From an uncultured Gammaproteobacteria bacterium (lineage in GTDB: Bacteria > Patescibacteriota > Patescibacteriia > UBA9934 > CAZDDW01), in the NCBI GenBank assembly GCA_964504365.1, contig CAZDDW010000001.1, positions 1-57,378 of the forward strand: a DNA stretch of 57,378 nt, read 5' to 3'. The translations under genes and the position numbers were made by a program. The notes under the pieces were generated by a model. That model was not told where the DNA came from, searched no databases, and saw only the letters and a program-made list of their open reading frames with translations. Of the stretch, positions 13,280 to 14,933 are shown one piece after another (the stretch's first letter is position 1; each line of letters opens with the position of its first letter).

Positions 13280-14503
13280 ATGTGGCGCAGTAAAAAGAAA
13301 AAGCCAATTCCACACGCACGAGACCTGGATCAGGTGCTCGGCGATTTTGAACAGGATCGATTTTTGTTAGAGTGGACGGATCATATTTTACGAGAGGCTC
13401 GTAGCAAATATCCAATCTTGTCTGATTCTTTTGATACACCACAATCTGCTGATAAACATGCTGAGGGTCCGGTTCTTGAAGATCATCTCCGTAAAATGTT
13501 AATGGCTCTGTATGCTTTGGTTGAGGGCCGATTCTCATTGATGGATATTGAGGAGTTTGCCCGCATGCGTGGATATGAAGGTGAATTTGAAGAGCTGGAG
13601 GAAACGATTAAAGAGCGAGCTGCATTTTTTAAAGCATTTATCATTGTGCACGATATTGGCAAAGCAGCCACGATTTCGTTTAGTGCACCTGAAGGAAGTA
13701 AAGGAGAGGACGAGGGATTTGGAAATGGGTTTGCTGCGGCTTGGGATGATTTTCAAGGCGATGATCGTTTCGTTGCTCGGAAAGAATATGAAGATCTGTA
13801 CGCTGGGTTTGCAGCTGAGCGGTCTGGACTGACCCCGCGTGAAATTCAAGCTGAGTTTTTTAAGGCTTACCAGATTTCAATTTCTAATCATCGCCATGCT
13901 CGTGTAATTTTTGCCCCGCACTTGTTAGAGGTTGCTCGATCTGTGGGTGAGGATTATCGCTTGCCTGAGAACGATGTTGATTTGTTAGTTGAGTTGATTG
14001 CGGCACACATGGATCCGTTGCATAAGTTTTGGGTCAAGTCTGATGCCAAGCAATATAATCATCTGGTTGAGTACGCTAACCGGCTTGGTCGTGATGCTGA
14101 TGACTTTTTAGATTTACTTCAGGCCGGGGTTTTCTTGGATGTTGTTTGTGGTAGGGTACAGTTGTCTGCTCAGGGCTACTGGCATTACTCTGATGTGCTG
14201 ATCAACTTTATGAAGTCAGAACATGACTGGATGCCAGAGCGTCGGGCTGAGGCTGAGAAGCGGCAAGCTGATCGTTTGGTGGAACAGAAGCGCGCGGTCT
14301 ATCGTGAAGTTGGTTTGGATGGTGACTCGCTCATGGATTTGCTAAGCATGACACCAGGGCCAGATTTTGGTAAGCTGCTCAAAGAAGTTCAAGGGGCGGT
14401 TGATCGTCCGGAAATGATGCCGGATTTGGAAGGTGGATTAAGGGAAGAGGTTTCTAAGAGAATAGTGGAGGCAAGGAAGAAGATACTGGTATTTGAGATG
14501 TAG
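13280..14503 (+). CDS. HD-domain-containing protein resembling CCA-adding enzyme body/tail
   Basis: HAEGPVLEDH, VHDIGK, H..H..HMD spacing, C-terminal PGPDFGKLL. Confidence 0.65.
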   Translation: MWRSKKKKPIPHARDLDQVLGDFEQDRFLLEWTDHILREARSKYPILSDSFDTPQSADKHAEGPVLEDHLRKMLMALYALVEGRFSLMDIEEFARMRGYEGEFEELEETIKERAAFFKAFIIVHDIGKAATISFSAPEGSKGEDEGFGNGFAAAWDDFQGDDRFVARKEYEDLYAGFAAERSGLTPREIQAEFFKAYQISISNHRHARVIFAPHLLEVARSVGEDYRLPENDVDLLVELIAAHMDPLHKFWVKSDAKQYNHLVEYANRLGRDADDFLDLLQAGVFLDVVCGRVQLSAQGYWHYSDVLINFMKSEHDWMPERRAEAEKRQADRLVEQKRAVYREVGLDGDSLMDLLSMTPGPDFGKLLKEVQGAVDRPEMMPDLEGGLREEVSKRIVEARKKILVFEM

Positions 14504-14933
14504 AGAGTAGATAGTAGAAGGTAGACAGAATCAAATTATGCAGTTTAGATACGAAGAATTAAGGGTTGGAAAGATTGTGTTGGATTATGTCGACTCGGTA
14601 TATCGAGTTACAGCCTCTTTTCCCGGCCATGAGCGTTACACTTTAACAAGTCAATTAAGACGAGCAGCGATCTCTGTTTATTTGAATCTTGCTGAAGGCA
14701 GTGCCAGGAGAACAAAGGCAGAATTTGCACGCTTTATTACAATGTCCCTTGGATCACTTGTCGAAGTAGATGCAGCCCTGAAGATCGCTTTGAGACAGAA
14801 GTATATTAATCAAGAACAATATCAACAGACAAGATTAGAAACTGAACAAATCTGGATTTCTTTATGCTCCCTCAGAAGGTCTCAGCAAGGGAAAAATTAG
14901 ACCCTTTCTACCTTCAACCTTCTACTTTCTACC
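14500..14933 (+). mobile_element. four-helix-bundle gene flanked by inverted heptad repeats
   Basis: Left flank gtagagagtagatagtagaaggtagacagaatcaaatt; right flank ccctttctaccttcaaccttctactttctacc. Confidence 0.6.
14538..14900 (+). CDS. four helix bundle protein (23S rRNA IVP / S23-like family)
   Basis: FPGHERYTLTSQLRRAAISVYLNLAEGSAR..F..MSLGSLVE motif. Confidence 0.92.
   Translation: MQFRYEELRVGKIVLDYVDSVYRVTASFPGHERYTLTSQLRRAAISVYLNLAEGSARRTKAEFARFITMSLGSLVEVDAALKIALRQKYINQEQYQQTRLETEQIWISLCSLRRSQQGKN

Follow-up and report, generated by a model that had tools for sequence, protein, structure and literature searches.

Intervening sequences (IVSs) in the 23S rRNA of Coxiella burnetii and Leptospira may carry an open reading frame, and in these cases the host transcript carries an element whose terminal inverted repeats pair over about 28 bp and whose loop encodes a four-helix-bundle (4HB) protein (PMC4990558). 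In Coxiella, tandem GACAGAT heptamers stand directly before the ATG of the S23p gene, the terminal stem measures 28 bp, and cleavage by RNase III at the first heptamer repeat has been shown experimentally, with the authors doubting that S23p is translated after cleavage (PMC4990558). ORF-less IVSs are found in enterobacterial 23S rRNA (Salmonella and others) as short, cargo-free hairpins that occupy a helix apex in the host rRNA (PMC4990558), and cargo-free apex hairpins also occur among the ORF-less rRNA insertions of CPR bacteria (bioRxiv 10.1101/2024.02.27.582315). From a different direction, tandem heptamers have been described as the most frequent of the periodic repeats found between prokaryotic genes, with “no clear clue” to their function (bioRxiv 10.1101/309039). 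Such arrays often end beside a start codon, contain stop codons within the repeat unit and are sometimes found as inverted pairs at variable distance, and the reports describing them (SPADE, bioRxiv 10.1101/309039; PMC4679880; PMC2700814) leave them unconnected to PF05635 genes or to IVSs.

The connection is direct at the locus described here, where a 4HB gene, flanked by two ordinary genes, occupies the tip of a hairpin made of 7-base repeats. The locus is part of a 57,378-nucleotide stretch of bacterial DNA that was analysed as a whole (the window). Measured against the classical 23S IVS, it has the ORF-enclosing stem and the heptamers in the 5′ arm but not the location in a 23S helix: it occupies an mRNA operon junction, between an unknown gene and ruvA, and not rRNA helix 25 or 45. 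It further differs from the ORF-bearing IVSs in that its arms supply a host stop codon and in that 17 gene-less paralogues are dispersed in the genome. These gene-less copies in turn differ from ORF-less IVSs in lying at operon junctions and at non-rRNA hairpin apexes, and in being demonstrably of one family with a cargo-bearing copy. The account that we favour, with somewhat better than even confidence, is that positions 14500-14932 constitute an IVS-type cassette whose home is an operon of protein-coding genes and not an rRNA gene, and which would be read through and cut by RNase III.

The element upstream of ruvA

Table 1. Positions in the window of the cassette, its host genes and the related hairpins.
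Feature	Position	Strand	Remarks
H1 insert, gene-less heptad hairpin	718-790		nested at apex of CCAC-type hairpin, about 692-813
H2 insert, gene-less heptad hairpin	5580-5651		nested in CCAC hairpin 5556-5672
H3 insert, gene-less heptad hairpin	6499-6571		nested in CCAC hairpin 6475-6593
H4, unoccupied CCAC hairpin, same subtype as H1/H2/H3/H5	7888-7931	+	apex TTTCGA (7907-7912), no heptad insert
H5 insert, gene-less heptad hairpin, one heptad shorter	8795-8860		nested in CCAC hairpin 8770-8883
H6, unoccupied CCAC hairpin, same subtype as H1/H2/H3/H5	9653-9696	+	apex TTTCGA, no heptad insert
Upstream host ORF, 407 aa	13280-14503	+	no Pfam/NCBIfam match; stop TAG (14501-14503) inside first left-arm heptad
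Left arm, four heptads	14500-14527	+	GTAGAGA GTAGATA GTAGAAG GTAGACA; from sequence, inverted-repeat detection and fold
Left loop half GAATCAAATT	14528-14537	+	immediately 5′ of ATG; matches left loop half GAAACAAATT of gene-less copies
Cargo ORF, 120 aa	14538-14900	+	PF05635 / TIGR02436 4HB protein, 23S rRNA IVS protein family
Right loop half TAGACCC	14898-14904	+	TAG is the ORF stop codon; matches TAGTTCC of gene-less copies
Right arm, four heptads	14905-14932	+	TTTCTAC CTTCAAC CTTCTAC TTTCTAC; complementary to left arm
Downstream host gene ruvA	14935-15480	+	ATG 2 nt past right arm; no room for own Shine-Dalgarno sequence

The carrier of the cassette (Table 1) can be described as a 73-nt palindrome, with four 7-nt units per arm (consensus GTAGARA on the left and TYTCTAC on the right) and a loop of 16 nt, into which a cargo of 360 nt is set exactly at the apex. 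Inverted-repeat detection yields a pair of 38-nt segments (14500-14537 and 14895-14932) that are 79% complementary and lie 357 nt apart, and when positions 14490-14945 are folded the arms pair around the entire ORF in both the MFE and the centroid structure, the z-score of the whole 456-nt fold being only -2.1. The element does not qualify as an intrinsic terminator, since the arms are A/T- and purine-rich and the right arm is followed by the CT-ATG of ruvA, with no T run. Rfam detected no rRNA anywhere in the window, and orthologues of the upstream host ORF are found upstream of ruvA in three related genomes (G001, G002 and G003). With stop codons contributed by the heptad arms and start codons directly against them, the boundaries of adjoining genes are easily miscalled in annotation.

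Judged by profile criteria, the cargo protein is a member of the PF05635/TIGR02436 4HB family, scoring 101.8 bits against a cutoff of 33.8 for PF05635 (E 3e-29) and 96.8 bits against a cutoff of 24 for TIGR02436. The ORF is intact and every family-invariant residue is present. Its nearest solved structures are 2GSC (E 2.9e-22, residues 5-114) and 2RLD (E 1.6e-5), each an entry of five chains. PADLOC returned no defence-system match for the element.

Gene-less and unoccupied copies in the same genome

The original prediction held that a long hairpin insert in an island of CCAC hairpins in the window is an empty copy of the 4HB element, and the comparison on which it was founded proved accurate. 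The left flank of the gene matches the left arm of the H5 insert at 33/38 positions (14500-14537 versus 8795-8832) and the right flank matches the right arm of H1 at 27/33 (14901-14933 versus 759-791). At the junctions the full copy reads caaatt-ATG...TAG-accctttctac and H5 reads caaatt-TAG-ttcctttctac. The insert sits at the apex of four hairpins of the form CCACCAGAGTTTCTGA...GGTGG (H1, H2, H3 and H5), H4 and H6 having TTTCGA alone at that position, and the stop codon of the upstream gene does come from the left flank, so that absent, empty and full states of one element are all present in the window. The diagnostic heptads said to be swapped between the arms are indeed present: the island copies have GTTGAAA in the left arm, and the full copy has TTCAAC on the right. 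Direct alignment of the island inserts with the full copy is nevertheless always slightly better than inverted alignment, which lends an inversion no support.

The genome-wide count of full and empty elements that had been proposed as a check returned one full copy and 17 gene-less heptad hairpins in this 1-Mb genome. Removing the ORF in silico (ATG through AAT) leaves 73 nt, compared with 66-78 nt, and mostly 72-73 nt, for the gene-less copies, and this remnant shows 77-89% identity with all of them but one, a short copy (C9:4708) with which it agrees at 55%. Its best matches, C6:39891 and C6:41553, both lie outside the window and its island; the closest agrees at 65 of 73 positions, at equal length and with the non-repetitive loop included. 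Full and empty forms correspond exactly at the start and stop codons, and no remnant of the ORF was seen in any empty copy. Two further counts speak against chance: the window has 19 occurrences of CTTTCTAC, where 1.6 would be expected, and none of 100 shuffles reached that number, and the array pattern GTAGANNGTAGANNGTAGA has 46 matches in this genome, with its reversed control giving none in all 61 genomes surveyed. The inserts of the island and the arms flanking the gene belong to one repeat family, in which the gene-less insert is the empty version of the 4HB element.

The direction of change is a separate matter. Insertion of the ORF into the apex of a pre-existing hairpin and deletion of the ORF from a full copy fit equally well. 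Since the four island copies differ very little among themselves, they need not represent four independent insertions. The filled state of H5 against the unfilled paralogous modules H4 and H6 does argue that the apex has gained or lost the insert. With filled, empty and unoccupied sites in one genome, a direct comparison of these versions of a poorly understood cassette becomes possible, and related genomes add filled and unfilled orthologous junctions.

The same design in other genomes

Complementary flanks (z <= -2.3) surround the 4HB gene in 27 of 30 loci from the same order, and lag-7 identity there is 0.447/0.444 in the flanks versus 0.27 inside the ORFs. In 27 of the 30 the arms abut start and stop codons, which disposes of a generic repeat with inconsistent junctions, the finding that had been named in advance as fatal to the prediction. 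Loci from further afield were gathered with a 10-protein alignment (a broader 12-protein alignment had no conserved stretch), which gave 75 4HB loci spread over many phyla; the flanks are complementary in 45 of these, and 42 possess a 7-periodic arm. Flank sequence varies from locus to locus while the 7-nt periodicity stays. Elements whose proteins are 60-70% identical share 9% of their arm 6-mers, compared with 20% for the two arms of a single element, which indicates that the arm sequence changes and complementarity is kept. Co-variation of protein and arm was considered as a sign of specific recognition and set aside, because arm 6-mers are barely shared even at this level of protein identity. 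The operon setting is also widespread: in 98 elements, an upstream same-strand ORF ends within 75 nt in 64 and a downstream ORF starts within 110 nt in 77.

Comparison of orthologous gene junctions gives a view of occupancy. The junction upstream of ruvA is full in this genome (G000) and lacks any spacer in G003, and in G001 and G002 it is occupied by other inserts. At the junction after ruvA, G002 has a 73-nt GTAGA hairpin that supplies the TAG of ruvA, and this genome is unfilled (AAGTAATATG). Filled and unfilled versions of orthologous junctions thus exist in related genomes, and from these alignments there is gain or loss at such sites. A 6-nt direct repeat, AAATTA, at both ends of the ORF was examined as a possible target-site duplication or microhomology and proved not to be general: direct repeats of at least 5 nt flank the ORF in 12% of the 98 elements versus 15% of controls, which is no excess, and the carrier ends in the filled G002 and unfilled G000 pair are too diverged to call one. 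No transposase linked to the element was found. Helix 45 of 23S rRNA is the classical IVS site, and in the sister genome G003 a gene-less heptad palindrome occupies its apical loop, a placement similar to that of the cargo-free insertions of CPR bacteria.

REPIN-RAYT systems pair REP doublets with their Y1 transposase, and the layout seen here, one gene bracketed by a repeat in inverted orientation, with further copies of that repeat scattered as hairpins that have no gene and with a family-specific and patchy distribution, is like that of a RAYT gene between its REP sequences. It is conceivable, if unlikely, that the 4HB protein, viewed as a pentameric relative of Avd, which binds nucleic acids, acts on the heptad arms of its own element and helps them to be copied or inserted. 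The one full copy would then have mobilised the 17 gene-less hairpins in trans, as non-autonomous copies. The survey of 61 genomes fits such bursts, with 46, 31, 40 and 37 GTAGA array matches in four genomes and none in 44, and three of the four GTAGA-rich genomes (G000, G023 and G054) have a 4HB gene in GTAGA arms. In G003, where heptad contexts were read by eye (a simple local alignment missed diverged partner arrays), each of three 4HB genes has its own heptad family with gene-less arrays of that family also present, and in G000 and G003 no cargo other than 4HB genes was seen within heptad palindromes. Against this stand the lack, to our knowledge, of any known catalytic motif in the 4HB family, and of HUH/Y1 motifs in the present gene, together with the failure to find a target-site duplication. 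Nor are the arms conserved with the protein: the G054 protein has GTAGA arms as here at only about 32% identity, and a G003 protein is 59% identical, yet its arms differ. The 4HB copies in G003 and G023 are pseudogenes. In the 95%-complete assembly of G002 about 13 GTAGA hairpins were counted and no GTAGA-flanked 4HB gene was found, so cognate cargo is clearly not needed for the carrier to persist, and perhaps not for it to spread. A RAYT as the mobilising enzyme was also considered, and Y1_Tnp genes are present in 5/5 genomes checked, but those of this genome lie away from the cassette and the copy examined in it, a RAYT-like gene at C10:30962-31816, is flanked by its own, non-heptad repeat.

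A second improbable explanation is that these are host regulatory hairpins, acting as intercistronic punctuation, coupling spacers, mRNA stabilisers or sites for a global regulator, with the 4HB gene as regulator or passenger. Their position suits such a role, as the gene-less copies lie precisely between co-directional genes, 3-15 nt from them, and at the apex of conserved CCAC hairpins in the island. There is also precedent in the paired tandem hepta- and octanucleotide repeats of Geobacter metallireducens, proposed as sites for a global regulator (PMC2700814), and in the TAACTGA heptamer arrays of Beggiatoaceae, which end 1 nt before start codons and for which a role in translation has been proposed (PMC4679880). 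A host function would be expected to bring conservation, but the GTAGA family is missing from those 44 of 61 related genomes and nearly so, with 3 matches, from G001, a congener; orthologous junctions work without the hairpin, and a like palindrome is tolerated in helix 45 of G003, where regulation of mRNA makes no sense.

Proposed passage through the transcript

For an IVS-type cassette in an operon, the course of events can be outlined from the Coxiella precedent. The host operon transcript would read through the element, and its arms would pair in that transcript as an imperfect stem of about 28-38 bp, which RNase III, encoded in this genome at C3:68865-69524, would cut. Cleavage would set the cargo mRNA free with the cistrons on either side still usable, on the model of the homologous 23S IVS of Coxiella. 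Excision has been demonstrated for the Coxiella element and is predicted by analogy for the present cassette, which is probably removed from its transcript in the same way; given the published doubt about S23p translation after cleavage, any advantage that the cargo might draw from being excised is a supposition. The folded stem would rejoin the stop and start codons of the host genes, and the gene-less copies are the carrier free of its cargo.

The strand on which the palindrome acts has a bearing on this scheme. The sense duplex is the more stable in 21 of 30 full elements (Wilcoxon p = 0.047), and the gene-less copies have no sense-strand bias in duplex stability, those of the island even folding better as antisense. 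G:U asymmetry was accordingly dropped as proof of an RNA-level stem. Strand asymmetry this weak or absent may indicate a palindrome at the level of DNA.

Retro-mobility, in which cargo RNA released by RNase III is copied by a reverse transcriptase with the 4HB protein as Avd-like cofactor and re-inserted at hairpin apexes, appears very unlikely. PF05635 is the Avd family (PMC10053308), the DGR accessory protein Avd has a homologous four-helix-bundle fold, the cargo protein has a weak DivGenRetAVD match, and two reverse transcriptases are encoded in the genome (contigs 9 and 14), that on contig 9 beside a second, weak 4HB gene. The match is, however, 20.5 bits against an Avd cutoff of 80 (NF033474), no reverse transcriptase, template repeat or variable repeat lies near the element, which thus does not qualify as a DGR, and there is no poly-A or other retro-insertion signature, the gene-less copies being free of ORF remnants. 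Mere coincidence, by which the likeness of the gene flanks to the island inserts would be meaningless, could appeal to the simple, purine- or pyrimidine-rich composition of the arms, but is refuted by the excess of CTTCTAC-type 8-mers, the empty reversed-pattern control, the 65/73 identity over equal length and loop, and the shared architecture of 27/30 relatives.

A much wider generalisation, which we offer as a long shot, would make PF05635 genes and heptad hairpins one self-propagating system throughout bacteria, in which a pentameric 4HB protein reads 7-nt runs and helps to place or copy the hairpin, with rRNA IVSs and much of the tandem-heptamer excess as its products. If so, the sites of placement would be junctions between a stop and a start codon as well as the tips of hairpins already present, rRNA helix 45 among them. 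Whatever the mechanism, three loose ends meet at this locus: the role of the widespread S23p 4HB proteins, the origin and spread of rRNA IVSs, and the abundance of intergenic tandem heptamers.

A property of the arms that touches on how an IVS-type cassette could be accommodated in an operon is their stop codons. A repeat unit of 7 nt that contains a TAG would place stops in all three frames for ribosomes entering from either side, and these would let the element sit flush on its neighbours, supplying the stop of the upstream gene and ending 2 nt before the ATG of ruvA. TAG is found 2.15 times per 42 nt of arm compared with 0.92 in shuffles. Stops in all three frames are present in 48-50% of arms read inward, versus 21-24% when shuffled and 21-28% when read outward; that only about half of the arms have them counts against the proposed mechanism.

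One repeat family in absent, empty and full states

The genome under study, whose size and relatives suggest a member of the candidate phyla radiation (CPR), comprises 1.07 Mb in 19 contigs, the window being the initial 57 kb of contig 1, and the element at 14500-14932 is best described as an intervening-sequence (IVS)-type cassette in an operon, in which a heptad palindrome is the carrier and a four-helix-bundle (4HB) ORF at its apex the cargo. The product of this ORF scores 96.8 bits against TIGR02436 ("four helix bundle protein") and only 20.5 bits against the DGR Avd equivalog profile, far under the cutoff of 80; among solved structures the nearest are 2GSC (E 2.9e-22) and 2RLD, both with five chains in the deposited entry. 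No family match was found for the ORF upstream. Together with the loop halves, the arms form a 38-nt inverted repeat of 79% complementarity, and RNA folding of 14490-14945 pairs them round the entire ORF in minimum-energy and centroid structures alike.

The original prediction held that the inserts in the CCAC hairpins of the island are empty copies of this element, the left flank of the gene matching 8795-8832 at 33/38 nt and its right flank matching the arm in hairpin H1 at 27/33. Both counts are exact, and the junction at start and stop is borne out: removal of the ORF, from ATG through the last sense codon, leaves GTAGAGAGTAGATAGTAGAAGGTAGACAGAATCAAATT joined to TAGACCCTTTCTACCTTCAACCTTCTACTTTCTAC, a remnant of 73 nt, where gene-less copies are mostly 72-73 nt long. 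Aligned with the gene-less copies at C6:39891 and C6:41553 on contig 6, the remnant shows 89% identity, and 13/16 positions agree in the non-repetitive loop (AATCAAATTTAGACCC vs AAACAAATTTAGTTCC). One repeat family, with an exact start/stop junction, is thus present in absent, empty and full states within a single window, as had been proposed, and the island inserts are best described as belonging to this carrier family but having no cargo. Chance resemblance of flanks and inserts is excluded by the 8-mer CTTTCTAC, which occurs 19 times in the window against 1.6 expected, and by a three-heptad pattern that matches 46 times in this genome and, when reversed as a control, nowhere in 61 genomes.

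Genome-wide, 17 gene-less hairpins of the GTAGA family were found, 3-15 nt from neighbouring genes, and just one full copy. Hairpins H5, H4 and H6 have an upstream module in common and H5 alone of these is filled, which favours a gain or a loss in the hairpin apex over plain copying of a composite. The second PF05635 match in the genome is weak: an Avd-like four-helix-bundle ORF that adjoins a reverse transcriptase on contig 9 (C9:17655-18823, outside the window), probably part of a diversity-generating retroelement that has nothing to do with the cassette.

Coordinates of the cassette, its relatives and other features (window positions unless a contig is given; G003, same-family sister genome)
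Feature	Position	Description
4HB cargo ORF	14538-14900	120 aa; PF05635 (23S rRNA intervening-sequence protein), E 3e-29
Upstream neighbour	stop TAG 14501-14503	407-aa ORF; stop falls inside first heptad
Downstream neighbour		ruvA; start 2 nt past last heptad
Left arm		four 7-nt units, GTAGAGA GTAGATA GTAGAAG GTAGACA
Right arm		four 7-nt units, TTTCTAC CTTCAAC CTTCTAC TTTCTAC
Gene-less copies	718-790, 5580-5651, 6499-6571, 8795-8860	at apex of CCACCAGAGTTTCTGA...GGTGG hairpins
Unoccupied hairpins, same subtype	H4 7888-7931, H6 9653-9696	TTTCGA at insert position
Gene-less heptad palindromes, G003 (L064/L065)	C1:129469-129600, C1:130288-130375	inside 23S rRNA gene
RAYT-like Y1 (HUH) transposase gene	C10:30962-31816	284 aa; outside window
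Second-family copies	C1:59870-59984, C1:190740-190854, C2:70900-71017, C5:15035-15148, C7:25749-25870, C16:3862-3990	outside window

A general design and its link to rRNA intervening sequences

The same design is general across the gene family. PF05635 genes occur in 47/60 related genomes, and at 27 of the 30 loci fetched from these the flanks pair far above shuffles (z -2.3 to -11.7). Self-identity of the flanks is ~0.42-0.45 for lags of 7 and 14; other lags give ~0.28, and the interior of the ORFs 0.27. The heptad unit varies by locus (TAGGTGT, GCAGCWG, GTAGCAA, GATTAGC, GTAAAGT, GAGTGAW and others), and despite this both arms of each locus remain complementary. A wider scan, in which each species was represented by a single genome, yielded 80 loci, spread over CPR, Bacteroidota, Clostridia, Planctomycetota, Gammaproteobacteria, Acidobacteriota, Actinomycetota and other lineages; among the 75 evaluable, flanks were complementary in 45, an arm was 7-periodic in 42, and at least one of the two held in 58. 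Arm 6-mers are shared at 9% between pairs with 60-70% protein identity and at 20% between the two arms of one element; arm sequence changes much faster than the 4HB protein.

The complete genome G003 carries three 4HB genes in three distinct heptad families, each of which is also found gene-less. Two gene-less palindromes lie inside its 23S rRNA gene: one sits, by the Rfam alignment, in the apical loop of the hairpin at model positions ~1206-1226, which on the E. coli 23S map is helix 45, the classical IVS site, and the other precedes the conserved CCUAAGGUAGCGAAAUUCC stretch by ~80 nt. The IVS that Coxiella burnetii has in helix 45 contains an S23p ORF and a 28-bp terminal stem, with three tandem GACAGAT heptamers, variable in number by strain, ahead of the ATG, and RNase III cleaves at the first of these (PMC4990558). 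The host of the full element here is an operon, whereas that of the Coxiella IVS is 23S helix 45. PF05635 ORFs have also been recorded in CPR rRNA insertions (bioRxiv 10.1101/2024.02.27.582315), and heptamers are described elsewhere as unexplained TAACTGA arrays (PMC4679880), as paired heptanucleotide sites in Geobacter (PMC2700814) and in the SPADE survey, which found "no clear clue" to the function of such arrays (bioRxiv 10.1101/309039). IVSs with S23p ORFs, the Coxiella heptamers, PF05635 ORFs in rRNA insertions of CPR bacteria and heptamer arrays that lack an explanation are known already; in the literature searched, no report connected IVS/S23p ORFs, PF05635 in CPR rRNA insertions and heptamer arrays. 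What the window adds is that all three states stand next to one another, and that orthologous junctions can be compared with and without an insert.

Orthologous junctions and operon setting

Both kinds of junction are found around ruvA. The junction before it holds the full element in the genome under study. In G003 nothing separates the two genes, and in the congeners G001 and G002 there are hairpin-like inserts unrelated to the GTAGA heptad family; this junction seems to be an insertion hot spot. These inserts are long inverted repeats, located ~215 nt upstream of ruvA in G001:C12 (L033; GGCCGGCCACTT...AAGTGGCCGGC) and ~150 nt upstream in G002:C6 (L034; GGATTGTTGT...ACAACAATCC). The junction after ruvA is unfilled in the genome under study (AAG TAA T ATG) and in G002 is occupied by a GTAGA hairpin of 73 nt; the first TAG of this hairpin serves as the ruvA stop, and T-ATG comes directly after its last unit.

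Over 61 genomes, GTAGA arrays are abundant in 4 (G000, the genome under study, with G002, G023 and G054), rare in 13 and absent in 44. G023, which belongs to a different family within the order, has a 4HB gene of the same subfamily (54% identity) that is frameshifted and sits in GTAGA arms before a different gene. In G003 a copy of 59% identity, bearing an in-frame stop, lies at yet another locus; its loop halves are similar but its arms are of another type (GGTAAAG). G023 also has pure tandem GTAGAAA arrays of up to ~14 units (C11:27711-27806, C40:3392-3452), against 4 units in G000 arms.

TAG is enriched 2.3-fold in arms reading inward from either side, and inward stops in all three frames occur in 48-50% of elements, compared with 21-24% when shuffled and 21-28% reading outward; three copies of a 7-nt unit together cover every reading frame, which offers a simple explanation of the period. 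Elements are typically squeezed between same-strand genes, the upstream ORF ending within 75 nt in 64/98 and the downstream ORF starting within 110 nt in 77/98. All-frame stops and tight same-strand spacing suggest how the host tolerates the element. The right arm is frequently followed by YCT-ATG of the next gene with no Shine-Dalgarno (window 14929-14937, L007, L009, L016, L018, L029); ruvA of G003 has the same CCTATG context at a site lacking the element.

Probable excision, possible mobility and other heptad repeats

On the Coxiella precedent and the anatomy of the element, it would be co-transcribed with its host genes, its arms would pair in the RNA and RNase III, whose gene is present in this genome, would excise it; the all-frame stops would insulate it, and the stem would bring host stop and start back near each other. 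Since full elements show marginal strand asymmetry (21/30, p = 0.047) and gene-less copies show none, the palindrome may act at the DNA level instead of as an RNA stem.

It is attractive to think of a REPIN/RAYT-like system in which the 4HB protein acts on its own arms, as this fits the patchy bursts of GTAGA arrays and the GTAGA-flanked 4HB gene in 3 of the 4 GTAGA-rich genomes; however, G002 has many GTAGA hairpins and no cognate gene, two of the related 4HB copies have become pseudogenes, and the arms vary independently of the protein sequence. No catalytic motif is known for the PF05635 family, no general direct repeat was found at ORF junctions, and PADLOC gave no match. The RAYT-like transposase of this genome showed no link to the cassette and has its own non-heptad flanking repeats, duplicated inverted copies of GGGGTCAGGTCTTGATA on both sides.

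Besides the IVS-type cassette and its gene-less relatives, the window holds a long gene-less palindrome of ~7-nt units from a different family at 29553-29675 (CAAGCAC / CCAAATA ... TTTGGTA). The genome has a second heptad-palindrome family of ~110 nt (CAATGAC/CAATGAT ... ATTGATC/ATTGGTC), no copy of which has a gene; it runs right up to the start codon of the gene that follows, and its loop, GAAAATTAG, is similar to that of the GTAGA family. In G003, lone unpaired CGACGTG arrays of 3-4 units (C1:205761-205786, 913585-913613 and others) appear to lie inside coding regions and to be translated as amino acids.
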